Source of the DNA: an uncultured Planctomycetia bacterium
GTDB lineage: Bacteria > Omnitrophota > Gorgyraeia > Duberdicusellales > 4484-171
Length of the DNA stretch: 20,619 nt
NCBI GenBank assembly: GCA_964536865.1
Contig: CAZHYN010000005.1
Coordinates: 56,829 to 77,447 of the forward strand
Reading direction: 5' to 3'
Position 1 is the first letter of the stretch, and each line of letters opens with the position of its first letter. Below the pieces are notes generated by a model. It had not been told where the DNA came from. It ran no database searches and saw nothing but the letters and a program-made list of their open reading frames with translations. Positions 1-19,463 of the stretch are shown here, in pieces. Made by a program: the position numbers and the translations under genes.

Positions 1-35
1 TTAGTTAAATCTGCTATTGATTAACTATCTTCCTA

Positions 36-107: not shown

Positions 108-162
108 AACTACCTTAAGGAAAACACAGTAAATAGGGATTAAATTCTCTAATAAAATAACT

Positions 163-573: not shown

Positions 574-588
574 AGAAACCCCTCCTTT

Positions 589-4152: not shown

Positions 4153-4165
4153 TAATCTCTGGAGA

Positions 4166-4255
4166 CTACTTCTTCTTGTGCCTCTGTTGCTTCCGCCTTT
4201 TCTTATACCAATGACGTTTTACTTTTTTTAACTTTCTCTTCCTTCCGCAGGGCAT
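4166..4255 (-). CDS. 29-aa highly basic protein, possibly a bS22 / AURKAIP1-COX24-like small ribosomal protein (absent from the ORF track)
   Basis: Hand translation gives MPCGRKRKLKKVKRHWYKKRRKQQRHKKK*. A GAGGAAG Shine-Dalgarno lies 5-8 nt upstream of the ATG. The ORF fills the hisG-TPR gap (17 nt and 13 nt spacers) on the operon strand. Confidence 0.45.
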   Translation of the reverse strand: MPCGRKRKLKKVKRHWYKKRRKQQRHKKK

Positions 4256-4272
4256 ATTACTTCCTCAGAGGT

Positions 4273-5148: not shown

Positions 5149-5168
5149 AGCTGACTCACAGAAAATAA

Positions 5169-5197
5169 ATTATACAATCATCATATTTTATTGTAAA
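5169..5197 (-). promoter_or_regulatory. Candidate sigma70-type promoter for hisG: TTTACA-17-TATAAT
   Basis: Minus-strand -35 TTTACA (5192-5197) and -10 TATAAT (5169-5174) with a 17-nt spacer, in the 71-bp GT9-hisG gap. The -10 lies about 20 nt upstream of the hisG ATG. Confidence 0.4.
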
Positions 5198-5219
5198 GAA
5201 AAATTATCTCCTTATTAGT

Positions 5220-6311
5220 TTATTCTATCCCTTTCTTCCTATCTTCTAAAAATCTCCTAACTACTTCAAAAACTTCCTCTACAGTAATATCCCTTAAACA
5301 TTTCTTATCATACTTGCATCCAGGGAATTTAAACTTTTGATAACATGGTCGGCAAGATAAGTCTCTCTTCAAGATAACAATGTCTCGATTATCAGGGTAA
5401 GCTCCATATACCGTTTCATCTACAGGGCCAAAGAACACCACTGTTTTCACTCCTAAAGAGTAAGAAATATGGAAAGGACCTCCATCATTGGTAACAAAAA
5501 GGGTACACATCTTAACTAAAGCTGAAAATTCTACTAAATCTATCTTGCCACACAAGTCTATAACCCTATTTTTAGTATTTTCTACAATATACCTAGCTAT
5601 ATTCGTCTCGCTCTCAGAGCCAAATATAATTACTTTTGCCCCTAATTCTTCTATAATCAAGTTACAGAGCGTAGAGAAATACTCCTTAGGCCATCTTTTG
5701 AAGTATGCACTTTCTCGCCAACTATCCCCTGCACCAGGACAGATGCCTACTAAAATCTCTTCTTTATGGAGATTTAATTTTTTTAAGATGTTGTTGGCTC
5801 TCTCGATATCCTCCTCTCTCAGGAACAAATCAAACTTAACTCGCTTAGGTTTGATACCGACAAACTTAACTAACTGTAAATAGTAGTCAGCCACATGTTT
5901 ATCCTTATAGCCAAGGGGGAGCTCTTCTTTACAGTTAAGAAACCTTCCTCTATTTCTGTAATTAAACCCTACTCTTTTTTTAATTCCACATAATTTAAAG
6001 AATAGACCATACTGAGAGTTTAAAGAAAAATCAAATATGACATCGAAATTTTCTCTCTTTATTCGCTTAAAGAAAGAGAAAACTTCTTTTAAGAAGGCTG
6101 TCTTCGATTTCTTTATAAGCCTTCGGTAGTCGTCCTTCTCAAATACGTATACTTTCTCTAAGAAAATGTTCCTGGAAAGGAGGGGATAGACTCTCTTATT
6201 ACAGATATAAAATATTTTAGCTTGGGGGAAATTTTCTTTTATATTTCTTATGAGGGGAGTAGTAAATAAAACATCGCCAATGCCAAAGGGGTTAAATATT
6301 AAAAATTTCAT
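5220..6311 (-). CDS. Glycosyltransferase family 9 (ADP-heptose:LPS heptosyltransferase-like)
   Basis: FNPFGIGDVLFTTPLIRNIKENFP N-terminal motif and TNDGGPFHISYSLGVKTVVFFGP C-terminal motif, both typical of GT9. Confidence 0.75.
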   Translation of the reverse strand: MKFLIFNPFGIGDVLFTTPLIRNIKENFPQAKIFYICNKRVYPLLSRNIFLEKVYVFEKDDYRRLIKKSKTAFLKEVFSFFKRIKRENFDVIFDFSLNSQYGLFFKLCGIKKRVGFNYRNRGRFLNCKEELPLGYKDKHVADYYLQLVKFVGIKPKRVKFDLFLREEDIERANNILKKLNLHKEEILVGICPGAGDSWRESAYFKRWPKEYFSTLCNLIIEELGAKVIIFGSESETNIARYIVENTKNRVIDLCGKIDLVEFSALVKMCTLFVTNDGGPFHISYSLGVKTVVFFGPVDETVYGAYPDNRDIVILKRDLSCRPCYQKFKFPGCKYDKKCLRDITVEEVFEVVRRFLEDRKKGIE

Positions 6312-6313
6312 AT

Positions 6314-7687
6314 TTAATAGGAGTCGAAGCGCTCAATGTCATCTTCTCCCAGATAAGTTCCTATCTGAACCTCAATTACTTTGGCTATTTTATTTGTAGG
6401 GTTGTAGAGACGGTGCTTTTCTCTTTTAGGAACGAATATACTCTCATTTCTTTTTAAGTTAATTTTTTTATTCTTCAAAATTACCTCTATTCTTCCCTCC
6501 ACAACATTCCAGTGTTCACTTCTAAACTTGTGTCTCTGTAAGGATATATATTTTTTAGGATAAATTCCAATCTCCTTTACCTTGTAGTTACCAGCCTCTT
6601 TCAATATGGTGTAGTATCCCCAAGGTCTGTAGACAGTGAGAGAATCCTTTACCTCCTTTTCTTCCTTTAAAAACTTTACTACCTCTTTCATTCTATCCGC
6701 CAAAGACTTTTTTAAAACTAAAACGGTGTCCGGTGCCTCCACTATTATAGCATCCCTTAGTCCCACCCCTACAATCAACCTCTCTTTAGAAAAGGAAAAG
6801 CAACTCTGTGAGTCAAAAAAAACACCTTTGCCTATAGTGGCGTTTGACTTCCTATCCTTAAAAAATTCCCAGAAACTCTCCCAATTCCCCAAATCAGACC
6901 ACCTTAAATTAAATTTAACTACACACGCTTTCTTTGTTTTTTCCATAATTCCATAATCTATGGAGATAGATGGCATTCTAAAAAATTCTTTTAAAAAGGA
7001 GCTAAAATTCTTTCTATAAATTCTAAACAGAGAAGGCTGATATCTTTTTACCTCTTCAATAAACACGCTCTTTTTAAAAGAAAATATCCCTGCATTCCAC
7101 AATGCCCCCTTCCTCAAAAGAATGTGCAAACGTCTCCCTTTAGGTTTCTCTACAAATCTATCTACTAAATAACCTACTCTCAGGCGCTTTTTTAAAAGAA
7201 TATAACCATAACCCTCCTTAAGAGCAGTGGGTTTTACACCAAAAGTGACCAGATATCCCAAACTAGCTAACTTACCAGCTTTTTTTAGGCAGGCTTTAAA
7301 TCGATTTAGGGGCTTTATAATATGATCGGAGGGAAATACAAAAAATAACTCATCATCTGCAACCTTATCTTCTAAATATTTTAAAACGGTTAAAACCGAA
7401 GGAAGGGTACTTTTTGGTTTCGGCTCTAAAACAAGATTACGCTTTAAATAATCTTTTTCTTTTTGGGAAATTCCTAAAGAATCAATTTGATTAAAGATAT
7501 GAAACTTATAATCTTGGTGAGAGCTGATAAATATATCGTAAGGATTAAATATACTTAAAACCCGTTTTAAGGTAATCTGAAATAAACTCTTTCCGTCTAA
7601 AAACTCTACGAACTGCTTAGGATAATTTATTCTCGAAAGAGGCCAAAGTCTGGTTCCTTTACCTCCTGCTAATACTACTGCTTTCAT
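6314..7687 (-). CDS. manC: Mannose-1-phosphate guanylyltransferase / mannose-6-phosphate isomerase (type II PMI, bifunctional)
   Basis: MKAVVLAGGKGTRLWPLSR nucleotidyltransferase motif plus a C-terminal cupin (RPWGYY...SLQRHKFRSEHWNVVEG...IEVQIGTYLGEDDIERFDSY). Confidence 0.85.
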   Translation of the reverse strand: MKAVVLAGGKGTRLWPLSRINYPKQFVEFLDGKSLFQITLKRVLSIFNPYDIFISSHQDYKFHIFNQIDSLGISQKEKDYLKRNLVLEPKPKSTLPSVLTVLKYLEDKVADDELFFVFPSDHIIKPLNRFKACLKKAGKLASLGYLVTFGVKPTALKEGYGYILLKKRLRVGYLVDRFVEKPKGRRLHILLRKGALWNAGIFSFKKSVFIEEVKRYQPSLFRIYRKNFSSFLKEFFRMPSISIDYGIMEKTKKACVVKFNLRWSDLGNWESFWEFFKDRKSNATIGKGVFFDSQSCFSFSKERLIVGVGLRDAIIVEAPDTVLVLKKSLADRMKEVVKFLKEEKEVKDSLTVYRPWGYYTILKEAGNYKVKEIGIYPKKYISLQRHKFRSEHWNVVEGRIEVILKNKKINLKRNESIFVPKREKHRLYNPTNKIAKVIEVQIGTYLGEDDIERFDSY

Positions 7688-9144
7688 TATTGACTCCTCA
7701 ATTCTTTCAAACGCTTGGAAAAATAACCTCCGGTATAACCGTCTAAACTAGCAGTGAGCTCTCTAAGACGTAACTCTTTTTTCATCCTCTCCTCATCAGG
7801 TAAGGTAGGATCTTTTAATGCTATCTTTATCCGCAACCTCTCATAATATAACCCATTCACATCATCAAGAATAGTAGTCCTTAATTGGGTGTTGAGTCGA
7901 CTCCGCGTATCTATATCATCTTGATAGGTATTCCAAATCAAATCTCCTAAATCCCAGCTAAAACTTAAACCCCAATCACGGGGACCAATATAGTATCTAT
8001 CAGAACTGCTGTCGTAATTTATAGTCTTATCATAATCTAAACTTACCGTAGGAAGGATTGCTCTAAACTTTAGGTGCTTTCTCCACCTTCTGATCTTCTC
8101 TGGATGAACCTCATTATATCTTAACGCCGCCTCTTGAACTTCTCTTATACTAGGCTCATATTTAAGCAACTTATCTAAATCTCGTGTGTATTTACCTCTG
8201 CTATACTCTTCTTTAAAATATAAACCCTTAGTGGTAGCTACAAAAAGCCTACCTCTCTTATCAAAATCTAAATCAAAAATATCTTTGGTAGGTAAACCCT
8301 CAAAGATAGCTTCAGAAACCTCATCTTTAAGGTTTACTTTAAAAATACCTCTATTAGTCCCTAAATATAAGTTATTTCTGTCACTCTTAGGCTTAGCTAT
8401 TGCTCTAATATCAGCATTTTCTATTATAGGAAGGTGAACTTTTATGAATCTATTTCCTTTATCTTCAGAGAAAAAGAGGCCTTTACTGGTACCTAAGTAG
8501 ATTTTATCTCTAAAGTAATAATCTACTTTTATCACTCTGCATACAAGACTAAATTCCTCTTGCTCTTGTTGTTCTTCAATTAGAGGAAAACTTCGCTTAA
8601 AACGCTTCCCATCAAAAGAAACATACACTCCTAAATTCGAAGCTAAATAAATAGACTGGGAAGAAAAATCTATAGAATAAACTACCAAATCCTGAGGTAA
8701 GGTCTCCTCCTTTTTCCACTTTGTAGTATCCTCCGAAGAGGAATAAAGTCCAGAAGTTGTCCCTACATATACTGTATTTCTATTCTTTCCCACACATTTA
8801 ATCTCAACCTCAGGAGGAGAGATAAATACTTTCTCTATTTTATCTTCGAAAATCCTATAAAGGGAAGAAGTGGTAGCTAAGTAAATGTTGTCGTATAGAA
8901 CATCATCCACACACAAATCCCTTATACCTTCATCTTTAGCTACAAGAATTTTTTTCCAGGTTTTTCCTCCATCCCTACTTCTAAATAGAGAATTAGATGA
9001 GGTAGTATAGAGTAAATTATCATCAAAATTGGATACATAAATTCTATAAAGCGCTGCTTTCTCAATCCCTCCCAGCTTAACAAATCCTGCCCAAGCGCTC
9101 TCTATAAAGACAAATAAAAAAACTGGCACCCACAATGCCCTCAT
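7687..9144 (-). CDS. Secreted two-domain protein: N-terminal BNR/Asp-box beta-propeller-like region plus an uncharacterised C-terminal domain
   Basis: Signal peptide MRALWVPVFLFVFIESAWA. Asp-box SRDGGKTWKK. Repeated Y(L/V)(G/A)T..GL(Y/F) blades. A 1-nt overlap (TAATG) with manC suggests translational coupling. Confidence 0.6.
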   Translation of the reverse strand: MRALWVPVFLFVFIESAWAGFVKLGGIEKAALYRIYVSNFDDNLLYTTSSNSLFRSRDGGKTWKKILVAKDEGIRDLCVDDVLYDNIYLATTSSLYRIFEDKIEKVFISPPEVEIKCVGKNRNTVYVGTTSGLYSSSEDTTKWKKEETLPQDLVVYSIDFSSQSIYLASNLGVYVSFDGKRFKRSFPLIEEQQEQEEFSLVCRVIKVDYYFRDKIYLGTSKGLFFSEDKGNRFIKVHLPIIENADIRAIAKPKSDRNNLYLGTNRGIFKVNLKDEVSEAIFEGLPTKDIFDLDFDKRGRLFVATTKGLYFKEEYSRGKYTRDLDKLLKYEPSIREVQEAALRYNEVHPEKIRRWRKHLKFRAILPTVSLDYDKTINYDSSSDRYYIGPRDWGLSFSWDLGDLIWNTYQDDIDTRSRLNTQLRTTILDDVNGLYYERLRIKIALKDPTLPDEERMKKELRLRELTASLDGYTGGYFSKRLKELRSQ

Positions 9145-9305
9145 CTTTCCTCCCTCTTTATTTTATACATCTTTTTCAAAAAGTCTGTGAAATTAAATTT
9201 CTAACTTTCCAAAGCACAAAAATAATAGATAGGTATTTTCTCCTGAGGTATTGAATTAGACGACGCATCCTACTTTCAGAAACGGCTCTTTTGGAAAGAT
9301 AGAAG

Positions 9306-9333
9306 ATTTTAGAAAAAATTCTTAAACTATCAA
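9306..9333 (-). promoter_or_regulatory. Candidate promoter TTGATA-16-TAAAAT for the beta-propeller/manC/GT9 operon
   Basis: Minus-strand -35 at 9328-9333 and -10 at 9306-9311 inside the 280-bp intergenic gap. AT-rich context makes chance matches common. Confidence 0.3.
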
Positions 9334-9400
9334 GCATAAGTAAAGAATTATCTCATTATCTCTCTCCAAGAGCAAGTTTTTTTATCTCAATATATTACCT

Positions 9401-9446
9401 CAAATGAGACAAAACAAGTCTGACTTAAAATGTCTCATTTGGAGGG
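9401..9446. repeat. 46-bp palindromic repeat, copy A (inverted partner at 19322-19367)
   Basis: caaatgagacaaaacaagtctgacttaaaatgtctcatttggaggg. Its reverse complement matches 19322-19367 at 45/46 positions. Internal hairpin AAATGAGACA/TGTCTCATTT. It overlaps the last 6 codons and the stop of the GT2 gene. Confidence 0.9.
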
Positions 9447-10240
9447 GTTTTGTGGTGTTTAATCAGCTCTTTATACTTAGCATAACTTACAATTTGATAG
9501 AGAGAAGAAAAATAAGCCACCATAAAGCCAACAAAACCGTCACGATAACCTTTCTTTACTAAAAAAGTCCTTATGAATCTATCTAACATCCTCCATAAGA
9601 CGTGAATTAGATTCATCTTATAATGAGCTTTCTTAGGATTTACTAAGGATAACTTATACCATTTAATTGCTTCTAAGGTAGTTTGCTTATTAACTTTATT
9701 TAAAAAATCTCCCCAATTTCTATAGGTGTAATGAATAAGGGGATTTTTTAGATGTCCACAACTACCCTCCAAAAACGCTTTAGGATGAACTTCTACCTCC
9801 TCCCACTTAAACTTATCCTTCCTAAATAATTTTATCTGAGGGGCAGGGTATAACCCTCCCCATCTTATCCAGTAATTTCCTATAAAGTTTTTGCGTGGTA
9901 CAGTATAAGCACTGTGGGAAGGGCTCGAACTTAAAACTTCAATAATTTCCTTCTTTAACTCCGGAGTTAACCTTTCGTCAGCATCTAAACTAAACACCCA
10001 CTCATTTTTTGCCTGAGTATATGCCCAGTTTCTGTGCTTTCCTTCGATATCCATCTTCCTAAATAATACTTTTGCTCCTAAATTTTTGGCTATTTCAGGA
10101 GTCCTATCTGCTGACTCATCATCAACTACAATAACCTCATCCGCCCAATCCAAAACAGATTTTATACACTCAGCAATTCTTTCCTCCTCATTCTTGGTTA
10201 AAATTACCACAGAAATAGCTTCTCTAACCATAACAGCCAA
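9425..10240 (-). CDS. Glycosyltransferase family 2
   Basis: ISVVILTKNEEERIAECIKSV...VVDDESADRT and LDADE (DxD) motifs. Confidence 0.8.
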   Translation of the reverse strand: MAVMVREAISVVILTKNEEERIAECIKSVLDWADEVIVVDDESADRTPEIAKNLGAKVLFRKMDIEGKHRNWAYTQAKNEWVFSLDADERLTPELKKEIIEVLSSSPSHSAYTVPRKNFIGNYWIRWGGLYPAPQIKLFRKDKFKWEEVEVHPKAFLEGSCGHLKNPLIHYTYRNWGDFLNKVNKQTTLEAIKWYKLSLVNPKKAHYKMNLIHVLWRMLDRFIRTFLVKKGYRDGFVGFMVAYFSSLYQIVSYAKYKELIKHHKTPPNETF

Positions 10241-11300
10241 AATGTTTTATCTCTCTTATTTTTTCTTCATCAAAGTCAGTTAATACTGGATACTTAAATT
10301 TATCTAAAAGCCAGTGCAAGCTTCTGCTTTTACTTATAATTAAATTATATCTCTTCTTCTTTTTTAAAATCTTAAAAACTAAGTCAAAAAGGTTATTAAA
10401 TTTTATAAATTCTATGCCGGAATGCTCAAAATGATTGCTCTCCTTAAAAATAGCCTCCCTCTCTTTATGAAGATTTTTAACGAAGAAGCGAACAAAATTA
10501 CCTTCTCGTGCTAAGTTTATCCCTCTATCTAAATTATCCAACAACTCTTTAAAATCTTCCACAATCCATGCCACCCTTAATATTTTACCCCACTTCTTTG
10601 TAAACTTTTCTCTACTTTTTGCAAAGACTTCCTCTTTTTCTTTAGGCCATTGTTTAAATGAGGCATGCTCCTGGTGCCATACATAAGAACCCTTAGCTAC
10701 CCCTATTAGGTAACCCGCACTTTTAGCTTTCATAGAGTAATCGGTATCCTCAAAAAACATAGGATGAAATTCTTCTGACAATCCTCCTATCTTTTCTATA
10801 ACCTCTCTTTTTATTACCATACAAAATCCTATACAGAAAGGCATCTCTACAAATACTCCGGTGTATCTAGCCTTTAGCTGCTGGGCAAATTCCTCTAAGG
10901 AAACACCTTTGGGTGGGTTAGCTCCTAAATTATTACTGTTAGGATTAAGAACCCCTACCTTAGGATGTTTTTCGAAAACAGATATTATCTCGGAAAGCCA
11001 ACCCTTAGTAAAAATTAAATCATTGTTAGCCAAACATACGTAAGGAGCACTGGATACGGTCAATCCTTGATTCATTCCTCCCACGAAACCTCGGTTTTCA
11101 TTATTTAAAATAATTTTTACTTTAAATTGATCTGTGCTGCGTAAACTTTCTAAATACTCTCTGGTACCATCTATGCTTGCATTATCAATTATGATTAACT
11201 GGGAAGGTAAGTATGTAGTGCGCAAGAGGCTCTCAACAAAACTTTTTATTATCTCTTTTTGATTCCACGTCAATACAATGATATCACATAAATACCTCAT
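10224..11300 (-). CDS. Glycosyltransferase family 2 with a ~120-aa C-terminal extension
   Basis: DIIVLTWNQ...IIIDNASIDGTREYL and ANNDLIFTKGWL motifs. 17-nt overlap with the downstream GT2 gene. Confidence 0.75.
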   Translation of the reverse strand: MRYLCDIIVLTWNQKEIIKSFVESLLRTTYLPSQLIIIDNASIDGTREYLESLRSTDQFKVKIILNNENRGFVGGMNQGLTVSSAPYVCLANNDLIFTKGWLSEIISVFEKHPKVGVLNPNSNNLGANPPKGVSLEEFAQQLKARYTGVFVEMPFCIGFCMVIKREVIEKIGGLSEEFHPMFFEDTDYSMKAKSAGYLIGVAKGSYVWHQEHASFKQWPKEKEEVFAKSREKFTKKWGKILRVAWIVEDFKELLDNLDRGINLAREGNFVRFFVKNLHKEREAIFKESNHFEHSGIEFIKFNNLFDLVFKILKKKKRYNLIISKSRSLHWLLDKFKYPVLTDFDEEKIREIKHFGCYG

Positions 11301-12160
11301 ATCCTTAACTGGTTAAATTTCCCTCCAAACTTAAAAGCAATATAGTTAAACATCTTCTGTACACGGTGAAAATAGGTGTGGTTGGTAACTACTAACTCAT
11401 ATCCTGCCTTAGCAATTCTCTCTCTTTCTTCTTCGTTTTTTAAATAATACTCTATCAATTCTAAAAGTTCCTTATCATTTCTATACACTACCAAATGCTT
11501 TCCTGGAGTAAAAAGTTCCTCAAATCCATTGTTCTTAATATAATTAGTCAAAAGAAAACATCCGCAGGCCATTACCTCAAAAATACGCATATTGATATCA
11601 TTTCTTATAGAGGAGTTAAATCCAATCTTTGATGCACTATAAATCTCTGCCATTCTCCTAAAATCTGCTTCGCCAATAAAACTGTTAGGATAAGTTTTCT
11701 TTAAAAGCTCTAAGTGTCTACCACGAGCAAATTTTTTAGCATCTCTACCTACAAAGCCAATGTCATAATTTTTTTCTAAATTTAATTTTTTATGGATTCT
11801 GGGTTCGCAACCTAAAGGAATCCACTGAGTATCTACCTTTGTCTCTCGATGCAACCTTTCTGCTCCCTCTTTCTGAGCACAAAAGACAACATCGTAATGA
11901 TATAGGTGTCTTCTAATCTTTTTATAAGGTTTTTTTAGATGAGTATCTATAGCATAAAAAATAGCCGGACGTAAATCAGGAGAGATGTCATACTTATAAT
12001 CCCCATGATCAATTCTGAAGTAGAGGTTAAACCCTTTAGGTATATTAGGGTCTTGGGTCCAGAAGTGTTGGTAGCTAATACCTGCTTCTTTTATGATTCT
12101 CTCTATATACGCTCCTGTAGTGGACTCACTTTCCTTATTATAAATTACCGCTATCCTCAT
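11297..12160 (-). CDS. CgeB-like / Glyco_trans_1_2-type glycosyltransferase family protein
   Basis: C-terminal pattern NMRIFEVMACGCFLLTN...ELF.PGKHLVVY...EL..LI.YYLKNEEERERIA..G...V...HTY..R resembles CgeB/DUF3880-type proteins. ATGA overlap with the next gene. Confidence 0.55.
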   Translation of the reverse strand: MRIAVIYNKESESTTGAYIERIIKEAGISYQHFWTQDPNIPKGFNLYFRIDHGDYKYDISPDLRPAIFYAIDTHLKKPYKKIRRHLYHYDVVFCAQKEGAERLHRETKVDTQWIPLGCEPRIHKKLNLEKNYDIGFVGRDAKKFARGRHLELLKKTYPNSFIGEADFRRMAEIYSASKIGFNSSIRNDINMRIFEVMACGCFLLTNYIKNNGFEELFTPGKHLVVYRNDKELLELIEYYLKNEEERERIAKAGYELVVTNHTYFHRVQKMFNYIAFKFGGKFNQLRI

Positions 12161-12232
12161 ACCATATCTATCCTATCTATGTTGGGTATTCTATGTCCAC
12201 TATCTATTAATCATTAAGAAGTTAATATACTT

Positions 12233-13342
12233 TTAACAAAGACCTTTACTTTCCAGCTTCTTGAAAGCTTCTCTGGTAAAATCAAAGGCCTCTTGAGTCT
12301 CTGACCAGTTAATTAATTTTTTCATCCCTTCTTTAAATGAAACCTTGGGCTTAAATCCTAACTTTTTAGAGATTTTTCTGGTATCTGCATAGCAGTGCCG
12401 GATATCTCCTGCTCTGAATTTATTTAAGATTTTAGGCTCCAAACCCTTTCGGTATAGAGAAATTATAGTCTGCGCAATGTCTAAGATAGTGCAAGGCTTG
12501 CCTCTACCTACATTAAAAAAATCAAAATCAGCTTCCTTTTTTTTCATCGCTAAAATATTTGCCTCAACAATATCAGAAACGTAGATAAAATCACGAGATT
12601 GTCTTCCATCTTCAAAAATTAGAGGCGCTCGGTTATTCTTTACTCGAGATAAAAATATTGCTGCCACTCCTGTATAAGGATTACTTAAAGATTGTCGGGG
12701 ACCATAAACGTTAAAGTAACGTAAAGCCACAACAGGAATCTTATAAGCTCTTCCCACTGCTAAACACATCTCTTCTTGAGACCGCTTAGTAACAGCGTAA
12801 ATAGATGTGGGAAATAAAGGTTTATCTTCAGAAGTAGGAATGGCTTCTACTTTTCTTTTGCACTTAGGACACCTCATCTCCCAATCACGCTTCTTTAGCT
12901 GAGTTTCTTCTCTTAATAAAGGATATACTATACCATCTTTTTTGCAACTGTAAGCTCCCTCCCCATATATAGACATACTGGAAGCTACAATAAGTTTTTT
13001 AACTTTATTTTTAGTATTAACAATTAAATCTAAGAGCATAGCTGTTCCTAAGGAGTTATGCTCAACATACTTACGGATTTCATACATAGATTGTCCTACT
13101 CCAACTTGAGAAGCCTGATGAAAAACTACGTCAACTCCTTTCAATGCCTTTTTTAATTTATCTCTATCTCTTATATCAGCGAAGATATATTCAGTGTCTC
13201 TTCTCAAATAAGAAGGCCTCTTACCCAAGTGAACTTGAGGTTCTAAAAGATCGTAAACCCTCACCTTGTGTCCTTCTTCCACTAACCTATCTACTAAGTG
13301 AGACCCAATAAACCCACATCCTCCAGTAACCAAAATACGCAT
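12233..13342 (-). CDS. NAD-dependent epimerase/dehydratase (extended SDR) with a Cys-containing insertion
   Basis: MRILVTGGCGFIGSHLV Rossmann motif and catalytic YAVTK (YxxxK). A ~35-aa insert (YSCKKDG...EMRCPKCKRKVEAIPTSE) lies between the SS.S.YG and YxxxK segments. Confidence 0.8.
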   Translation of the reverse strand: MRILVTGGCGFIGSHLVDRLVEEGHKVRVYDLLEPQVHLGKRPSYLRRDTEYIFADIRDRDKLKKALKGVDVVFHQASQVGVGQSMYEIRKYVEHNSLGTAMLLDLIVNTKNKVKKLIVASSMSIYGEGAYSCKKDGIVYPLLREETQLKKRDWEMRCPKCKRKVEAIPTSEDKPLFPTSIYAVTKRSQEEMCLAVGRAYKIPVVALRYFNVYGPRQSLSNPYTGVAAIFLSRVKNNRAPLIFEDGRQSRDFIYVSDIVEANILAMKKKEADFDFFNVGRGKPCTILDIAQTIISLYRKGLEPKILNKFRAGDIRHCYADTRKISKKLGFKPKVSFKEGMKKLINWSETQEAFDFTREAFKKLESKGLC

Positions 13343-13389
13343 TTACTCTCCTTTCTTTTTATTCTCCTAAAAAAGCCACTACTCAAGAA

Positions 13390-14394
13390 TTAGAACCAGG
13401 TTCTTACTCCTGCTCCAATAGATATCCCCTCCTTTCCTTTTAAGAGACGTAAAAAATATTCAAAATCTTTCTCAGAGAGACTCTCCCGCCTAAAAATTAT
13501 TTCTAATCCCACCGGCTTCCCTCTCTTATCCTTTAGAGTAAATTTTAGCTTCTTACCTCTATCTAACTTTACAACAGCTGTAAATTTAATTCTTTTTATT
13601 ATTCCCTCCCCATAATTCATTTCAAAAACTAATCCCAAGGACCTTTTTATCTTCCAAGTCCCATACAGAATAATTACCCTCTCTGTGTAAGATTTTGCCC
13701 AACCTATCCCCACTCTGTATTTGATTTTATTCTGAGTAGGATAAAGAGTGGGAGTCTGGATATGCGCACGAAATTCAAAATTTGACTTATCTTGAGCTCT
13801 AAAGCTGTAACCCAACCTATTAGATGAGATAATATTCCAAAAACCTTTAAAAACTAAAGTGTTTTTCTCTTTGGTCTTAAGTTTTTTATACTCATATATA
13901 ATGTGTTGGTTTTTGTTTAGATACCAACTTCCCCTGAATATGAGAGTATCAACAAAATCTTCTCTAACTACACTGAAGGCAATCCGGTTAAACTTATCCG
14001 AATGCCATAAACCCTTTAATTTTATAAAGTATACCTTACTTATACCCCGAGACCGCTTACATTTTATCTGAACCAGCAAAGAATCTCTTTTGGGAAACAA
14101 AATTCCTGTGCGAAGGATTAATCTCTTATTCTTTTTCTCTTCTCCGCTAATGTAAAAAACTAAATTATGGTCTTTATCTAAGCTCCATCTGCCCCTAAAC
14201 TTTATTTTATCTGGCAAAGAATAAGGAGAAGAGAAAGATTTGTCAACTTCGTATATAAGATTATTTCTTTCCACTTTAAACTCGCCAAAAACTGCCTCTA
14301 TTTTCTTAGAAAAAGGGCGCCTTACCAAAAGCTGATTCTCATTATTTACCGAAACCACAAAGAAATCATTTCTTTTTAAGTTAGAAGTATACAT
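13390..14394 (-). CDS. Hypothetical protein built of ~10 tandem ~29-31-aa beta-hairpin-like repeats, with no signal peptide
   Basis: Recurring h-x-F-[RK]-G-x-W-x-h...[ND]-x-h-x-h units: IKFRGRWSLDKDHNLVF, IKLKGLWHSDKFNRIAF, LIFRGSWYLNKNQHIIY, LVFKGFWNIISSNRLGY, ILYGTWKIKRSLGLVF. Ends in GAGVRTWF. No family recognised. Confidence 0.6.
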   Translation of the reverse strand: MYTSNLKRNDFFVVSVNNENQLLVRRPFSKKIEAVFGEFKVERNNLIYEVDKSFSSPYSLPDKIKFRGRWSLDKDHNLVFYISGEEKKNKRLILRTGILFPKRDSLLVQIKCKRSRGISKVYFIKLKGLWHSDKFNRIAFSVVREDFVDTLIFRGSWYLNKNQHIIYEYKKLKTKEKNTLVFKGFWNIISSNRLGYSFRAQDKSNFEFRAHIQTPTLYPTQNKIKYRVGIGWAKSYTERVIILYGTWKIKRSLGLVFEMNYGEGIIKRIKFTAVVKLDRGKKLKFTLKDKRGKPVGLEIIFRRESLSEKDFEYFLRLLKGKEGISIGAGVRTWF

Positions 14395-14412
14395 TCTATT
14401 CTCTTATTTGTT

Positions 14413-14934
14413 TCAGAATTCTATTTTCTTAATTCCTAAGACCTTACACAATCGAAATAATGTCTCTATTGTAATATTCTTTTTGCCTTCTTCGATCATA
14501 GAGATATCTGGTTGACTTATACCTACTTGCACACCTAACTCTTTCTGAGTTAAATTCTTTTGAACTCTGGCTTCTCTAATTACTTTACCAATTTTTAAAG
14601 ATATCTGCGAGGGTCTTCCTTTAAACTTTTTATACTTATTATAACCCTCTTTTTCTAAAAGAGATTCATAGATAGTCTGCCACCAGTCTCTGAAATCTGA
14701 ATAAGGTGCAATTTTCTTCCAGTAAGATTTTATCCTTGGCCAGTATTTAATAAAATTCTCTTGAGAGATTAAAGAAAATAATTCTTTAGGGCTATGACAG
14801 CGGGAAAGAAGAGCTACCATACGAGGGATAAACTTAGAATGTTTAGGGTTATCAATAATCTCTTCTATCTCTTTAAGTGCTTTTGCACTCAAATCCCAAA
14901 AATATTTTGAGTAGATGGAAATTTTTGATTTCAT
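14413..14934 (-). CDS. XRE-family HTH protein with a ~110-aa N-terminal domain of unknown function (putative antitoxin/regulator)
   Basis: C-terminal LTQKELGVQVGISQPDISMIEEGKKNITIETLFRLCKVLG is a canonical XRE HTH. 4-nt ATGA overlap with the upstream nucleotidyltransferase gene. Confidence 0.7.
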   Translation of the reverse strand: MKSKISIYSKYFWDLSAKALKEIEEIIDNPKHSKFIPRMVALLSRCHSPKELFSLISQENFIKYWPRIKSYWKKIAPYSDFRDWWQTIYESLLEKEGYNKYKKFKGRPSQISLKIGKVIREARVQKNLTQKELGVQVGISQPDISMIEEGKKNITIETLFRLCKVLGIKKIEF

Positions 14935-15641
14935 TTCAACACCTCTTCAATAAACTTCTTTATTTCATTTTCCAAATAAATAAGCATCTCTTTAGAATCA
15001 AATTTATCCTCATAAATATCTAAATCAAGTAAGGCTAACTTAAGGTCTTGCCGAGAAAATGTCCGATACCAATGAATCATCCCTCGCTGCAGGTGGTTGG
15101 AAACTTTTTGTAAAAACAGATGTAGAGGTTCGATTTTTTTAGAAAGCATATAGATATCAAAGACATCACGAGCTTCTCTCCGCCCCTCAAATATCCTTCT
15201 ACCTATCTCATCTAATTCTGGTTTCAATCCAGCAATAGCAACAATCTTCTGGAGATATATATTCTCTACATCATAAACTCTTACTCCCTTGAATTTTCTT
15301 ATACAAGGCTTAAGAACAACCATATCTTCAACAAAATCTATTTTTAAAGGTCTTTTTGTTCCCCTAACTGGAGCTATGTAAAATCTTACTCTAGCTTTTC
15401 CCTCAACACTTAACTCTTCCTTTAAGCTCATATTAGTACCAACTACTTTTTGAAAAGCAGATACTAACTTCTCTATTTCCGATATATTATATTTCGGAGA
15501 AAAAAAGTCTAAATCTGCAGAAAATCTATGATGTAAATAATAAAGTTCTAAAGCCGTACCTCCGGAAAGAGCAAAACTCTTTGCAAATTTTGAAAAGACT
15601 CCTAATATCTTTTTTTGAGCTTCTCTAATCTTTAAATCCAT
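14931..15641 (-). CDS. AbiEii/DUF1814-like nucleotidyltransferase (putative toxin)
   Basis: FALSGGTALELYYLHHRFSADLDFF resembles the AbiEii nucleotidyltransferase core (GGTAL...R.S.DLDFF). 236 aa. Confidence 0.6.
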   Translation of the reverse strand: MDLKIREAQKKILGVFSKFAKSFALSGGTALELYYLHHRFSADLDFFSPKYNISEIEKLVSAFQKVVGTNMSLKEELSVEGKARVRFYIAPVRGTKRPLKIDFVEDMVVLKPCIRKFKGVRVYDVENIYLQKIVAIAGLKPELDEIGRRIFEGRREARDVFDIYMLSKKIEPLHLFLQKVSNHLQRGMIHWYRTFSRQDLKLALLDLDIYEDKFDSKEMLIYLENEIKKFIEEVLK

Positions 15642-15646
15642 AATTA

Positions 15647-15703
15647 TATAGGTTATATACTATATCTAATATAGATTATAACCTATAAAAATCTTTTTGT
15701 CAA
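15647..15703 (-). promoter_or_regulatory. Consensus sigma70 promoter (TTGACA-17-TATAAT) overlapped by a perfect 11-bp inverted-repeat operator
   Basis: Minus-strand -35 TTGACA at 15698-15703, 17-nt spacer, -10 TATAAT at 15675-15680. Arms TATAGGTTATA (15677-15687) and TATAACCTATA (15647-15657) are separated by 19 bp and straddle the -10 and the likely transcription start. A third TATAACCTA half-site lies at 15760-15768. The ATG at 15641 has no obvious Shine-Dalgarno. Confidence 0.6.
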
Positions 15704-15784
15704 TGTAAAAAGCTAACTCTCTCTTATAAGAATAAATAAATATTTATTAGATTTTCCTCTATAACCTAGAGTTTATAACTGAAA

Positions 15785-16108
15785 CTACCGATAATATTCA
15801 TGAGACCATTTGTAATTCTCTTTCCATCTATATCCAGAAGTCCAAAAGATACCTTTTCTCTGCAGGAACTTTTTTTGAAGAAGTTTACAAATTTCTGCAA
15901 ACTTAGGATGTAATGTTGACTCTCTTCCCATAATACCTATTCCTCCTCTAAATCCCTCCAAAGAATCTATTGCTTTCTTGATTGTTTCCAAATCCATAAA
16001 ATAAGTCTTTTTGTGATGACCTATAAAAGGCGGGCAATTAGCACACTCTAAAAAACATGTATTAGTAATCTCAATCTGAATCAACCACATATCTCTAATT
16101 GCTTTCAT
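15785..16108 (-). pseudogene. Truncated radical-SAM enzyme remnant (107 aa)
   Basis: ITNTCFLECANC carries the CxxxCxxC cluster motif. The usual GGEP(T/L)LHP motif is degraded to GRESTLHP. The ORF stops after about one third of a normal radical-SAM domain. Confidence 0.6.
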
Positions 16109-16131
16109 AATGAGCTCTTTTTAGGTTGTTT
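16064..16131. repeat. 68-bp direct repeat, copy 1 (partner at 17551-17618)
   Basis: 66/68 identical to copy 2, with mismatches at 16066 and 16094. Contains the first 14-15 codons and 23 nt of leader of the radical-SAM remnant, plus the last 3 codons and stop of the ATPase gene. Confidence 0.9.
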
Positions 16132-17476
16132 TTAAAATTTCAGAAACACGCGGAACAAGGTAAAAGGGTAAAGAAATCAAATTAAACTTTTCTCCTAAAA
16201 ACTCCACCTTACTCTTTTCTAAGTTTCCACTATAAATACGGAAAATTATTGAATTTTCTACTTCTTTAGCAAAGATAAGCAAGGATTTCAATCTGCCTAT
16301 CGGTTTAGATTTTACCTCTATACCTACTATTTTTCCCTCCTTAGAAAAACAAAAGTCCACCTCTGCACTGCCCTCTTTTTTTTCTTTAGCCCAATAAAAA
16401 ATTTTGGGAAAGACATCAATATATTGAGAAATTAAATTCTGAGCAACTACTTGTTCAGCAATTCTTCCTCTATAAAAATCATCTAACTTTTCAATATGTA
16501 AAAGTTGATCTTGTAGACCCATCTGATAATTCACTAATCCCACGTCTAAAAAAATTAATTTCTTTGGTCTTTTCTTTTGAGCTACCAGAGGAAGTCTCCT
16601 TGACTTTATAGCATTTAATTGATAAAGGAGCATAACTTTCTCTAAAGTATCAAAAGATTTACTCATTTCTCTGCTTCTAAAGTTAGAACCACCAAATTTT
16701 TCATAAGTAATTAAATTTCCCACAAATAAAGGAGCGGTTTCAATTACATAACTTAGATATTTTGCCTCGGCTAAAGAAGAATATTTATAGACATCCTCAC
16801 AATAAGTAGTAAATAAAGAGTTATATATTGATTTTAAATCGTTCATATTATTGTTTCTTATAAAACTCTTTACCACTTCAGGCATTCCTCCCACCAAGGT
16901 ATACTCGTAAAATTTTTCTAAAGCCAATTTATGAATTCCTTCAGGAATTTTATCCTTTATCTTAACATTAAGCAAAAAATCTAAAAGCTCTTTTTCTTTC
17001 TTTGCCTCTAAATACTCAAAAAAATCTAAAGGATAAAGATAACAAAATTCTACTCTTCCTACAGGAAAGGAAAGTCCTTCTCTTCTTATTTTTGCTTCCA
17101 GAAGAGAACCTGCAGCAATTACATACCAGTCTTTCTTTTCTTCATAAAAAAACCTTAATAATTTAATTAAAGATGGGGCATTTTGAATTTCATCTATGAA
17201 AATAAGGCTCTGGTTAGGAATTATTTTCTTATTAAACTTTACTTTTATAATATCCTCAAATTCTTTTAGAGAAATATCTTTGCGAAATAATCTTAAATGT
17301 TCTATGTTATCCAAGTTTATATGGATAACTTCTTTAAAATATTTTTTACCAAATAATAAAACTGCACAAGTTTTACCCACCTGGCGTGCTCCTCTTACAA
17401 TTAGAGGCTTTCTTTCTTTTTTTTCTTTCCATTTCAAAAAGTAATTAATAATTTTCCTGTAGAACATATCAGGCAC
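16121..17476 (-). CDS. AAA+ ATPase of the DUF4143/COG1373 type
   Basis: Walker A GARQVGKT, Walker B LIFIDEIQ, and the typical N-terminus FYRKIINYFLKWKEKKERKPLIVRG. The ORF-track start is GTG at 17476. The ATG at 17467 (MFYRK...) is the more likely start. Confidence 0.75.
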   Translation of the reverse strand: MPDMFYRKIINYFLKWKEKKERKPLIVRGARQVGKTCAVLLFGKKYFKEVIHINLDNIEHLRLFRKDISLKEFEDIIKVKFNKKIIPNQSLIFIDEIQNAPSLIKLLRFFYEEKKDWYVIAAGSLLEAKIRREGLSFPVGRVEFCYLYPLDFFEYLEAKKEKELLDFLLNVKIKDKIPEGIHKLALEKFYEYTLVGGMPEVVKSFIRNNNMNDLKSIYNSLFTTYCEDVYKYSSLAEAKYLSYVIETAPLFVGNLITYEKFGGSNFRSREMSKSFDTLEKVMLLYQLNAIKSRRLPLVAQKKRPKKLIFLDVGLVNYQMGLQDQLLHIEKLDDFYRGRIAEQVVAQNLISQYIDVFPKIFYWAKEKKEGSAEVDFCFSKEGKIVGIEVKSKPIGRLKSLLIFAKEVENSIIFRIYSGNLEKSKVEFLGEKFNLISLPFYLVPRVSEILKTT

Positions 17477-17550
17477 TATTTGTATTAACTTAGTACTAAT
17501 TTACTACAAATTATGTAATAATTCAATAGTTAATTTAGTAAAATTGGGTG

Positions 17551-17618
17551 AGCAATCTCAATCTGAATCAACCACATATCCCTAATTGCTTTCATAATGA
17601 GCTCTTTTTAGGTTGTTT
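17551..17618. repeat. 68-bp direct repeat, copy 2, carrying an orphan 5' fragment of the radical-SAM gene
   Basis: Same leader and ATG (17595) as copy 1. Reads MKAIRDMWLIQIEI, then diverges and stops after 21 codons (17530-17595). Confidence 0.9.
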
Positions 17619-17627
17619 AATAAATTA

Positions 17628-18022
17628 TCATAAATACCTAAACACCTGCAAAGCAGTTTTTCTCCAATCGAAATTGACTAATCTCTTTTTTCCTTTTCTT
17701 ATCAGTTCTTTTCTTAAATTACTACCTTCTATCAGTTCTTCTATTTTTTAGATAAACTCTCATAATCATATGAATCTATCAAAATTGCTGCATCATCTGT
17801 TATTTCAGGAATAGAACCTCTATTTGTAGCTATTACGGAAACTCCTCAAGCAAAAGATTCTAAAATTGGCAATCCAAATCCTTCATATAGAGAGGAGATA
17901 ATTGGAATAAGTGCGTTAGAAAGTAAAACTTTTATCAGAAGATTCCTTACTAAATTACATACATATACAGAAATTCCACACTTAGAATAAGCTAAAATTC
18001 TTGCGTTAACTCCTATTCGCAT
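17628..18022 (-). pseudogene. Decayed GT4 glycosyltransferase (internal deletion, nonsense codon, frameshift)
   Basis: Hand translation gives the GT4 N-terminus MRIGVNARILAYSKCGISVYVCNLVRNLL joined after ~45 codons directly to the C-terminal core SLYEGFGLPILESFA*GVSVIATNRGSIPEI. The TGA at 17846-17848 sits where GT4 has Cys. A 1-nt frameshift in the A6 run (17744-17749) precedes the tail IEELIEGSNLRKELIRKGKKRLVNFDWRKTALQVFRYL*. Confidence 0.75.
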
Positions 18023-18077
18023 TTTTCTCTAAGAGATACCCTTCCCTTTAAACTTCATTCTTTCAATTTTTCTTCTT

Positions 18078-18113
18078 TCAATGCCTTAGACCCTACACAA
18101 GCGAAATAATGTC
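18078..18113 (-). pseudogene. 36-bp relic of the 3' end of a second XRE-HTH gene
   Basis: aatgccttagaccctacacaagcgaaataatgtctc matches 14431-14466 (3' end of the intact HTH gene, ...ETLFRLCKVLGI) at 32/36 positions in the same orientation. It lies 2 nt downstream of the GT4 stop codon. Confidence 0.7.
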
Positions 18114-18115
18114 TC

Positions 18116-19201
18116 TTAGGTAGTAATTCCCTCTATGAGTGTCTTATACTTAGTTCCCATATTATAAATTCTGAACTCCTTCGCCTTTTCTAACCCCTTT
18201 ATTATTAGCTTTTCTCTATAATTAGAATTACTGAGAACATTCATAATACCATTTGCGATACTCTCTACATCATAAGGGCTTACCAATTCTGCACATCCTA
18301 AAGCAACCTCTCTTATAGAGCCAACATCTGAAGCCACCACAGGAACACCACAGGCAAAAGCCTCCACTACAGGAAAACCAAAGCCTTCATAAAAAGAAGG
18401 ATAGACCAAAATCTTTGCTCCATTATAGAGGTAAACTAAATCTTCCTCATTAACATACCCTAAATAGACCACTTTATTTTTTGCTTCATAACTCTCCATA
18501 AATAAATCTACTTCCCTGTAAGATTTTACCTTTTTGCCTACGATAACTAATTTAACTTTAGGGAATTTCTTTATTATGTAAAGAAATGCTTTAAGCAAAG
18601 AAATAAGATTCTTTCTTCGTTCTATAGAAGAAACAAAAAGTAAGTAATCATCCTCTATGCCAAATCTTCTCAACTTTTTCCTTATTATCTTTTGATTATC
18701 TATTTTTCTATAAACCAAATCTAAGGCAGGATAGATTACTTCTGTTTTTTCTTTGATATAGGGATAAAATTTAAGTAAATCACTCAAAGTATTCTTTGAT
18801 ATACATACCACCTTATCAGCTCTTTTAAGTCTTTGAGGTAAAAAACTAACTAACTTCTCTTTAGCATCTGTGCTGGAGAACTCCTCAACTACTAAGGGTA
18901 TTAAATCATGGAGGATTAAGATAAATTTGCCATAGTATGGAGAAAACTCATAAGAAGAACTAACGTGGATATCAGCAGGGGGATACTCTTTCTTAAACCC
19001 ATTACAGTAGATAATACCTTTACGATTAAGTTTAGGGGGCTTTTTCCTAAATTCACTCCACCTTTTTCGATAGTAAAGAATGAATCTGTATTTTTCTTCA
19101 CTAAAAGTTACACAAAAGCTTTTAAGTAAAGAAAGAGTAAACTTACCGATACCTGTAACAGTAGGTTTCAAGGTAGAATTAACATCTATGCATATATCCA
19201 T
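18116..19201 (-). CDS. Glycosyltransferase family 4 (GT-B, retaining type)
   Basis: YPSFYEGFGFPVVEAFACGVPVVASDVGSIREV carries the E-x7-E motif region. 361 aa. Confidence 0.8.
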   Translation of the reverse strand: MDICIDVNSTLKPTVTGIGKFTLSLLKSFCVTFSEEKYRFILYYRKRWSEFRKKPPKLNRKGIIYCNGFKKEYPPADIHVSSSYEFSPYYGKFILILHDLIPLVVEEFSSTDAKEKLVSFLPQRLKRADKVVCISKNTLSDLLKFYPYIKEKTEVIYPALDLVYRKIDNQKIIRKKLRRFGIEDDYLLFVSSIERRKNLISLLKAFLYIIKKFPKVKLVIVGKKVKSYREVDLFMESYEAKNKVVYLGYVNEEDLVYLYNGAKILVYPSFYEGFGFPVVEAFACGVPVVASDVGSIREVALGCAELVSPYDVESIANGIMNVLSNSNYREKLIIKGLEKAKEFRIYNMGTKYKTLIEGITT

Positions 19202-19207
19202 CTTTTC

Positions 19208-19315
19208 TTATATATTTTCCTTCTTTTCTTTATCCTTCACATACTCTTTAAATTTTCTACATATGCTTAAATTTTTTATACATACGTTTACACCGAATGA
19301 TATGAGAAAAAACAT
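19208..19315 (-). CDS. Possible 35-aa leader/small ORF upstream of GT4
   Basis: MFFLISFGVNVCIKNLSICRKFKEYVKDKEKKENI*. A strong GGAGGGAGG Shine-Dalgarno, contributed by repeat copy B, lies 3 nt upstream of the ATG. The stop is 6 nt before the GT4 ATG, which lacks its own Shine-Dalgarno. Confidence 0.25.
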   Translation of the reverse strand: MFFLISFGVNVCIKNLSICRKFKEYVKDKEKKENI

Positions 19316-19321
19316 CTTCCT

Positions 19322-19367
19322 CCCTCCAAATGAGACATTCTAAGTCAGACTTGTTTTGTCTCATTTG
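19322..19367. repeat. 46-bp palindromic repeat, copy B (inverted relative to 9401-9446)
   Basis: ccctccaaatgagacattctaagtcagacttgttttgtctcatttg matches the reverse complement of copy A at 45/46 positions. Confidence 0.9.
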
Positions 19368-19413: not shown

Positions 19414-19463
19414 AAACCACGCCCTTACCCCCCGCCCTTTCAAGGAAAGGGTGGGGTGGTTTT
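19414..19463. terminator. GC-rich stem-loop, candidate intrinsic (possibly bidirectional) terminator
   Basis: Core stem CCCCGCCCTTTC-aag-GAAAGGGTGGGG (19430-19456; one G:T pair). Possible outer helix AAACCAC/GTGGTTT. A TTTT run follows on the plus strand and a weaker T-rich stretch on the minus strand. Lies ~80 nt downstream of the DUF3108-like gene stop. Confidence 0.45.

Follow-up and report, generated by a model that had tools for sequence, protein, structure and literature searches.

Do two nearly identical inverted repeats that enclose a block of surface-glycan genes form a genetic switch, the ends of a mobile island, or simply two members of a dispersed repeat family? The question is raised by a 20,619-nt stretch of DNA from an uncultured bacterium of the Candidatus Omnitrophota (the whole stretch is called the window here), in which positions 9401–9446 and 19322–19367 are reverse complements at 45 of 46 positions, with one mismatch, just as a sequence-only reading of the window had described them. 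That reading offered three possibilities: recombination sites for a phase-variable inversion of the enclosed 9.9 kb, terminal repeats of an island, or dispersed palindromes at operon boundaries that resemble repetitive extragenic palindromic (REP) sequences or miniature inverted-repeat transposable elements (MITEs). We consider it likely that the repeats are solo REP-like two-tier hairpins of 39–41 nt, dispersed in a group of Candidatus Omnitrophota, and that their inverted arrangement is not an inversion device. Most likely, the hairpins of the window mark recombination seams rather than switch surface-sugar genes on and off, a reading that we prefer because the repeats belong to a dispersed family linked to a transposase-like gene.

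The window lies within a 45.7-kb metagenome contig (ENA ERZ27248455), of which positions 1–33138 were covered by contig-level searches. The same organism is also present in Logan runs SRR7517633 and SRR7517634; several proteins of the window region have close homologues annotated as proteins of Candidatus Omnitrophota metagenome-assembled genomes (MAGs), and one related contig is part of the MAG GCA_003644525.1. A strict pattern of the repeat was scanned against JGI metagenomes, and further copies came from later look-ups of related contigs. These metagenome contigs are labelled L121–L153, and coordinates given for them are their own. We call the hairpin type of both window repeats H1 and a sister hairpin H3; H2 denotes an unrelated hairpin found around Y1a, one of two transposase-like genes described below.

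Each copy of the repeat is itself a hairpin, as had been proposed, with an 11-bp outer stem (CAAATGAGACA/TGTCTCATTTG), a 4x4 internal loop, and an inner AAGT/ACTT stem; the fold of each copy has a dG of −20.7 to −22 kcal/mol (z = −3.3 to −6). The type can be written CAAATGAGACA-n4-AAGTCnGACTT-n4-TGTCTCATTTG plus a GGAG-rich tail. Copy A (9401–9446), defined by pattern, fold, and the orthologous site of relatives, has its canonical orientation on the plus strand, antisense to the genes, and copy B (19322–19367), defined by pattern and fold, has it on the minus strand, in the mRNA sense. A degenerate 41-nt pattern matches the window exactly twice, with none expected from 100 shuffles, and the likeness between the copies breaks off sharply at either end of the 46 nt. 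Neither a search that allowed up to 9 substitutions nor a scan for the architecture independent of stem sequence found a further H1 copy in the window or in contig positions 1–33138. Each arm being close to a palindrome, only the 19-nt interior and the 5–6-nt tail define the copies as inverted; compared as direct repeats, copies A and B are still 79% identical.

Copy B lies 178 nt 3′ of the stop codon of a DUF3108 gene and 5′ of a family 4 glycosyltransferase (GT4) gene, and its junction is identical in ERZ27248455 and in Logan run SRR7517633. A reading of the hairpins as terminators or promoters was set aside: neither copy is called by the terminator scan (the stems are AT-rich and no T-run follows), and a weak promoter-like ATGAGA-16-TARAAT match within each copy does not rise above shuffle level. 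In Rfam, only the tRNA-Gln gene of the window passes its gathering threshold, and a search of the hairpins in E-value mode returned chance matches to miRNA precursors at 17–19 bits, against thresholds of 70–100. A separate GC-rich hairpin with a 12-bp stem (CCCCGCCCTTTCAAGGAAAGGGTGGGG) stands at 19430–19456, in the gap that follows the DUF3108 stop and precedes copy B; such a stem is unusual for a region of 32% GC, and the hairpin draws a terminator call on the antisense strand only.

What these hairpins are becomes clearer when the search is widened to relatives. The strict pattern recovered 7 additional H1 copies on 6 contigs, later look-ups added more, and H1 is now seen at 5 or more distinct sites across related Omnitrophota contigs; the window repeats are not a private pair. 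These include the orthologous 3′ end of a family 2 glycosyltransferase (GT2) gene, the region 3′ of a PEP-CTERM protein gene (L132), and two positions, E1 and E2, at a ketoacyl-synthase locus. All copies are singlets, with no doublets among them, and they occupy intergenic gaps or overlap stop codons. Their stems are invariant, their 4-nt internal loops vary, and the purine-rich tail occurs in the variants GGAGGG, GGAAGAG, and AGGGGAG. At five of six H1 sites the order in the mRNA sense is stem, interior, stem, and purine tail; copy A of the window is the inverted exception. The H1 at the GT2 site of the sister lineage also differs from copy A by one interior mismatch, so the two window copies are not uniquely alike. 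Neither H1 nor H3 was found in viral contigs. No target-site duplication was found in the flanks of six H1 sites, a difference from MITEs; the sole duplication there, 20 nt long at E2, is a gene-end repeat.

The outer arms taken by themselves are a much less specific signal. With a loose pattern (AAATGAGACA-N13-25-TGTCTCATTT), at least 120 unrelated hairpins were found in species-representative genomes of Clostridia, Patescibacteria, Coriobacteriia, and others; among the matches listed, more than 120 genomes of other phyla have hairpins that combine the same 10-nt arms (AAATGAGACA...TGTCTCATTT) with unrelated interiors, many of these interiors lengthen the palindrome around a GGGGACAGTCCCC-like core, and the H1 interior is absent from all of them. 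Several Coriobacteriia gut MAGs carry a hairpin of the loose pattern on 2–3 contigs each, with interiors such as GTTGCTCAGAGCAAC, and these are possibly another repeat family.

H1 has a close relative. The H3 hairpin, which can be written CCTCC-TAACTTGACA-n4-CTTTTnAAAAG-n4-TGTCAAGTTA, has in common with H1 a 10+19+10 geometry, the GACA/TGTC stem ends, and a GGAGG tail, and it too occurs at 5 or more sites across related contigs. A hybrid hairpin (L141, 1456–1494) combines H3 stems with an H1-like interior and lies 5′ of a GT4 gene, a position analogous to that of copy B. When all related loci were scanned for the architecture independently of the stem sequence, only the H1 and H3 stem types emerged. 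An alignment of 14 distinct copies has 96.4% of its cells paired, compared with 19–43% in slid controls, and changes on both sides are seen in 7 of 14 pairs, most of them reflecting the single split between H1 and H3. H3 differs in also forming doublets, which are tandem direct repeats 6 nt apart and occur at several places, the GT9-HisG gap for example. From their architecture, H1 and H3 are best described as two subfamilies of one family of two-tier hairpins, 39–41 nt long with a GGAG-rich tail on one side.

The sister subfamily connects these hairpins with a gene that resembles a transposase. In L130, a 284-aa open reading frame (ORF), which we call Y1b, lies between the GT2 gene with its H1 and a beta-propeller gene. 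Pfam places a Y1_Tnp domain at residues 22–129 and a C-terminal helix-turn-helix (HTH) domain (HTH_7/HTH_23) at 250–283; homologues carry PF13384 or PF02796. The best NCBIfam model, NF047646, is that of the REP-associated tyrosine transposase (RAYT), matched at E = 1e-15 over model positions 2–146 of 146, and the HUH (LNHLHLLL) and tyrosine (YIHLNP) motifs are present. In L130 the gene is flanked by 111-nt direct repeats, each a tandem H3 doublet, and H3 singles or doublets stand on both sides of Y1b in every variant examined (100, 90, 87, and 79% identity). The gene always occupies one slot, in the order last GT2, (VanZ), Y1b, propeller, ManC, GT9. RAYTs have been described as single-copy and vertically inherited (PMC5581495), and the constant slot of Y1b matches that behaviour. 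In relatives Y1b is a neighbour of the GT2-end H1; it is missing from the window, and the intergenic slot that separates copy A from the beta-propeller gene (9145–9400), which in relatives carries (VanZ)-H3H3-Y1b-H3H3, is empty. No remnant of a Y1 or VanZ gene was detected by tblastn beside the window copies (best E about 2). In L153 (1226–1290) the GGAGG tail of a hairpin is the Shine-Dalgarno sequence of Y1b itself (TGTCAAGTTAGGAGGAAAGATG), and the same layout of hairpin, GGAGG, and ATG recurs at 19311–19327 of the window, where copy B precedes a 35-codon ORF.

A second, unrelated RAYT-like Y1 gene, Y1a (214–224 aa), is found directly after the ketoacyl-synthase gene, and its proteins are 82–99% identical among these relatives. 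We considered the 214-aa Y1a as the partner of H1 and rejected it, given that it is always flanked by H2 (ccaaTTCAACCT-ACG-AGGTTGAActgg) and that H2 is absent from the window. The best match of Y1a in the PDB is E. coli TnpA-REP (4ER8, E = 2.6e-5). Compact H2-Y1a-H2 units occur at L135 3065–3828, L136 6397–7163, L138 1438–2187, L139 880–1629, and L140 373–1118, and in the related contigs examined H2 is seen only beside the Y1a gene. Homologues of the Y1a family number more than 4,500, and most of them come from Omnitrophota.

If the hairpins are dispersed, why do two of them stand at the edges of this block? Comparison with relatives shows that the locus is a mosaic. Relative to the sister lineage, the core genes at window positions 1–5205, from HisG to the tRNA, are 87.6% identical, the propeller, ManC, and GT9 genes (about 5205–9398) are about 70% identical, and the GT2 gene with its H1 (9398–10225) is 96.6% identical, a value that, set against the 87.6% of the core, points to a recent exchange of GT2 between lineages. 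The low identity of propeller, ManC, and GT9 means that the variable glycan region extends past the hairpin bracket. With contig L145, positions 9398–13377 are 98–99% identical, after which L145 turns to a sister-type arrangement of VanZ, H3H3, and Y1b. Every alignment to relatives stops at position 9398, three bases outside the stem: relatives are 97–99% identical up to the outer edge of copy A and unrelated past it, and an ungapped comparison with L145 gives 39/39 matches in each 39-nt interval as far as the hairpin and random agreement thereafter. On these alignments, copy A demonstrably coincides, to the base, with a mosaic recombination seam between lineages. Relatives that have H1 at the GT2 end carry a different upstream gene set.

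The hairpin at this seam may itself record an exchange. The site of copy A is orthologous to the H1 of L130, L131, and L143–L148, in which the interior is flipped and the flank on the GT2 side is retained. The sequence-only reading had placed the last six codons and stop of the GT2 gene (9425–10240, minus strand; Pfam PF00535) inside copy A, and this is so: the protein of the window ends in PPNETF. In L130 and P0001 it ends in PPNETKQV because the hairpin interior is flipped; both endings fall in a non-conserved tail, since conservation among 23 aligned homologues stops at ...SYAKY.EL.K and the tails beyond it vary. The GT2-site H1 of the sister lineage has tails on both sides (CCCTCC...AGGGGAG) in addition to the flipped interior, and such a two-tailed hairpin is the product that we would expect if two copies in opposite orientation had crossed over within the stem. 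The ketoacyl-synthase locus provides a further case. It exists in three allelic states (L133, L134, and L135) that differ by a 2.57-kb cassette of toxin-antitoxin genes plus H2-Y1a-H2, bounded by one or two H1 copies, and L136 and L135 diverge directly after E1, as the window and L145 do at copy A.

We suspect that these observations reflect the following sequence of events. A Y1b-type enzyme would recognise the folded single-stranded hairpin together with its foot, and such an enzyme has probably spread or maintained the hairpin elements. Copies would persist where they are tolerated, in permissive intergenic sites at the ends of genes and operons; there they should be transcribed as stable stem-loops and could supply stop codons or Shine-Dalgarno-like tails. 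The same copies may act as portable homology or cleavage sites at which recombination joins different gene sets. The inverted bracket would then exist because two independent copies lie in the two large intergenic gaps that edge a recombination-prone glycan and defence locus. Of the three options originally put forward, it is therefore the dispersed REP/MITE-like palindrome at operon boundaries that the data favour: H1 occurs at other loci, its sister H3 flanks a Y1 gene of RAYT/TIRYT type, and the copies take intergenic or stop-codon positions.

The closest parallels are the REP and REPIN elements that, with the RAYT (TnpA-REP) transposase, make up the "REPtrons" of E. coli and Pseudomonas (PMC3116915, PMC5581495, PMC3479197). 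Like those elements, H1 and H3 are imperfect palindromes of about 40 nt, extragenic and mostly located just 3′ of genes; subfamilies exist side by side within one lineage; and the repeats (here H3) flank a single-locus Y1 HUH gene whose best model is the REP-associated tyrosine transposase. REPs are also known as hot spots of insertion and rearrangement (PMC1525189), an association that the hairpins described here share. The differences are that the H1/H3 hairpin is two-tier, with its 4x4 internal loop, that Y1b is flanked by 111-nt direct repeats and has a C-terminal HTH domain and a score under the RAYT equivalog cut-off, and that the host belongs to an uncultured phylum, the Omnitrophota, with a copy count taken from related contigs.

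The domain layout of Y1b is like that of TnpA-Y1 subclass 2.1.2 (Quentin et al. 2018, PMC6006769), which has been equated with the TIRtrons/TIRYT of Di Nocera et al. (2013, PMC3733652). Y1b is longer than the classical RAYTs, has a C-terminal domain of the HTH_23/HTH_28 type, and has its own moderately abundant, partly self-complementary flanking repeats, present as singles or dimers; the H1 tail of the sister lineage (GGGGAGAG) fits the reported GGGGWSAS motif, which is absent from both window copies. Unlike terminal inverted repeats, the repeats that flank Y1b are direct and each is a full hairpin. Quentin et al. reported finding no REP-like hairpins for subclass 2.1 (PMC6006769), whereas around Y1b they are obvious. 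The partner of the hairpin family appears to be an HTH-bearing Y1 protein, of a kind for which a search for REP-like partners was reported to have found none (PMC6006769); if this is confirmed, the tie between REPs and RAYTs would reach a further branch of the TnpA-Y1 superfamily. The IS200/IS605 family offers a further comparison: there too a Y1 HUH gene lies between subterminal hairpins in direct orientation, without target duplications. Y1b, however, occupies one conserved chromosomal slot across variants of 79–100% identity and not many sites, its hairpins are far commoner without the gene than with it, and the protein, roughly double TnpA-IS200 in size, best matches the RAYT model. We found no paper linking Omnitrophota with IS200-type genes.

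In a larger context, the data show that Omnitrophota have a family of REP-like hairpins accompanied by a Y1 transposase-like gene of its own, and that this family departs from textbook REPs in its lack of a GTAG tag, its two-tier hairpin, and its direct doublets. The base-precise coincidence of hairpin and seam, together with the chimeric flipped hairpin, provides concrete cases from nature in which such elements have recombined internally. In annotation, the hairpins account for places where contigs break, for odd C-terminal tails, and for small ORFs that are spurious in these MAGs. They also remove the case for a tempting but unsupported 10-kb phase-variation switch of surface glycans.

Several observations weigh against a REP-like family maintained by a Y1b-type enzyme. 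Only 2 H1 copies are present in positions 1–33138 of the source contig, no clean pair of a filled and an empty site was found, and the polymorphism at E2 includes the 20-nt duplication and an alternative gene end. Hairpins are lacking at other mosaic breakpoints of the block (about 10225 and about 12217). REPs carry a conserved unpaired 5′ tag, GTAG or, in the other super-family, CGTC (PMC3733652); H1 and H3 have a GGAG-rich tail in its place, and at the foot of the six H1 sites neither tag was found in the flanks, only the one-sided purine-rich tail. H3 doublets are tandem and direct, unlike the inverted REPINs, and H1 occurs as singlets. The match of Y1b to NF047646, at 58 bits, is below the 80-bit equivalog cut-off, and a profile search with the Y1b family found no solved structure. 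Finally, H1 never directly flanks a Y1 gene, the flankers being H3 (for Y1b) and the unrelated H2 (for the second Y1 gene); for this reason the link between H1 and Y1b rests on their common architecture, the hybrid copy, and a proximity of 490 nt.

How do the alternatives fare against this evidence? A phase-variable switch, in which a recombinase acting in trans would flip the 9.9-kb block between the 46-bp repeats and turn the glycan genes antisense, draws its appeal from repeats that are truly inverted around surface-glycan genes, much as in the Hin/Gin-type switches and the invertons of Bacteroides, and trans-acting invertases exist in other bacteria. We nevertheless regard it as very improbable. 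The repeat is not specific to this locus but belongs to a dispersed family, found singly or in direct pairs at unrelated loci; a check for recombinases nearby yielded no serine or tyrosine enzyme in the window or in contig positions 1–33138, and the genes of the window include neither a recombinase nor a transposase, as originally remarked; and in relatives the GT2 gene points the same way with respect to propeller and ManC. A survey of the junctions with the exact DUF3108, propeller, and GT4 proteins gave 14 contig observations from ERZ27248455, SRR7517633, and SRR7517634, and all 14 have the reference junctions, although, the data being assemblies and not reads, a low-frequency inversion could hide in them. 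The 9.9-kb segment is also far larger than typical promoter invertons, and a single orientation has been observed. Still harder to credit is a composite transposon or island whose terminal inverted repeats delivered the whole block. Near-identical inverted ends do surround an accessory-rich block, with a GC content of 28–32% at 15–18 kb, but target-site duplications and an internal transposase are both lacking, the block is a mosaic in its own right whose segments are common to different relatives separately, the same hairpin stands alone at unrelated loci, and the H1 at the GT2 end of relatives has a different set of genes upstream. What survives of the island proposal is that copy A lies at a recombination seam; as the description of a transposon it fails.

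There are two further possibilities, and we hold each of them to be unlikely. One is that the hairpin foot is where a Y1-HTH enzyme cuts single-stranded DNA and joins it again, moving cassettes of one or a few genes, such as GT2 with its hairpin or the toxin-antitoxin block with Y1a, into and out of surface-glycan loci and from one Omnitrophota species to another, so that the hairpins would be sites of a Y1-transposase system, like the attC sites of integrons in function, that shuffles glycan and defence genes between species. The 828-bp unit that is 96.6% identical to a lineage of 87.6% core identity is exactly one GT2 ORF plus H1, two direct H1 copies bound a site where the 2.57-kb cassette occurs in some states and is missing from others, the existence of a chimeric hairpin with two tails implies that strands were exchanged within the element, and a Y1 HUH enzyme adjoins the seam in relatives. 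If true, such a system would amount to cassette shuffling functionally analogous to integrons and built on a domesticated IS200-type enzyme, an idea to which we give little credence. Only about three independent events have been observed; the hairpin-free breakpoints belong to the same mosaics; the window copies are 9.9 kb apart and in opposite orientation, with about 10 genes between them; L135 retains the cassette with only one H1; and the gene-end duplication at E2 better fits homologous or illegitimate recombination. The hairpins are not integron attC sites in the strict sense, a candidate that we rejected: attC R/L boxes (RYYYAAC...GTTRRRY) are lacking, with no R-box consensus in CAAATGAGACA/TGTCTCATTTG, no integrase is present, the sites are inverted at their distance of 9.9 kb, and some breakpoints have no hairpin. 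The other possibility makes the hairpins RNA structures at operon boundaries (stabilisers, attenuators, or ribosome-binding sites) that spread by ordinary recombination with no role for Y1. REPs of E. coli stabilise upstream mRNA, and the hairpins here are strong; they abut or overlap stop codons at four sites (copy A, the GT2-site H1 of L130/L145, E2, and the H3 at the Y1b stop), the purine tail is 3′ in the mRNA sense at five of six H1 sites, and the tail is the ribosome-binding site of Y1b in L153 and of the putative small ORF after copy B. A purely structural role leaves unexplained the near-identical 39–41-nt sequences across lineages whose neighbouring genes are 70–88% identical, as well as the constant flanking of a Y1 transposase-like gene by the sister subfamily; there is no U-run, the terminator scan makes no call, and copy A has the opposite orientation on the mRNA. 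Such a role is compatible with a dispersed, Y1b-linked hairpin family as a secondary function.

The genes around the hairpins bear on how much of the locus the bracket defines. Every long ORF of the window is on the minus strand, and in the direction of transcription the DUF3108 gene is followed by copy B. The enclosed mosaic block (9447–19321, minus strand), delimited by Pfam and ORF analysis and by alignment to relatives, then contains in order the 35-codon ORF, a GT4 gene, a GT4 pseudogene, a duplicate of a radical-SAM 5′ end, an AAA_14/DUF4143 ATPase gene, a truncated radical-SAM gene, AbiEii and HTH genes, a gene for an unknown protein of 334 aa, an epimerase gene, a CgeB-like glycosyltransferase gene, and two GT2 genes. 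After copy A come the beta-propeller gene, ManC, GT9, HisG, a TPR gene, transketolase, an IspE-like kinase, SpoVG, and tRNA-Gln. The earlier statement that all glycan genes lie between the repeats does not hold, as the genes for the GT9 heptosyltransferase (5220–6311) and ManC (6314–7687) are outside the bracket. About half of the enclosed block is not concerned with glycan biosynthesis, this part consisting of AbiEii with an HTH antitoxin-like gene, the AAA_14/DUF4143 ATPase, the truncated radical-SAM gene, and the GT4 pseudogene. A ribosome-binding site for a small ORF had also been attributed to copy B, and a Shine-Dalgarno-like GGAGGGAGG before that ORF is indeed partly the tail of copy B: the GGAGGG end of the copy continues into GGAGGGAGGAAGATG, the beginning of the ORF. 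The ORF itself, a putative gene of 35 codons (MFFLISFGVNVCIKNLSICRKFKEYVKDKEKKENI; 19208–19315, minus strand), is not called as a gene in the source assembly.

Other traces of rearrangement are found inside the block. An 87-nt direct repeat (89% identical) at 16053–16139 and 17540–17626 stands on both sides of the AAA_14/DUF4143 ATPase gene, and both copies consist of the 5′ end of the radical-SAM gene and its upstream region, which suggests that a duplicative event inserted the ATPase gene. The repeat is also a point at which Logan contigs break, with L122 ending and L125 beginning there. The radical-SAM ORF at 15785–16108 is truncated to 107 aa; its orthologue in relatives has 316 aa (L130 7048–7998, L147 193–1143) and is found at another position, directly 3′ of the epimerase gene. 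In the 639-nt gap after GT4, a 58-aa ORF (17846–18022) fuses an N-terminal GT4-like stretch to a C-terminal EGFGLPILE motif and reads as a collapsed GT4 pseudogene; the start of the GT4 gene in L141 matches this region at 75%.

The AbiEii toxin gene and the HTH (HipB/Y4mF-like) gene downstream of it lie at 14413–15690, inside the glycan cluster. An AT-rich, near-perfect palindrome of 47 nt (15644–15690), just 5′ of AbiEii, may be an operator, and a second AbiEii with a DUF4143 fragment is located just past the end of the window (L121 916–2446). At the opposite end, the SpoVG gene (163–573) encodes a protein with a zinc-ribbon insertion at residues 55–77, where the DZR, Zn_Ribbon_1, and DUF7575 models match within the SpoVG domain.

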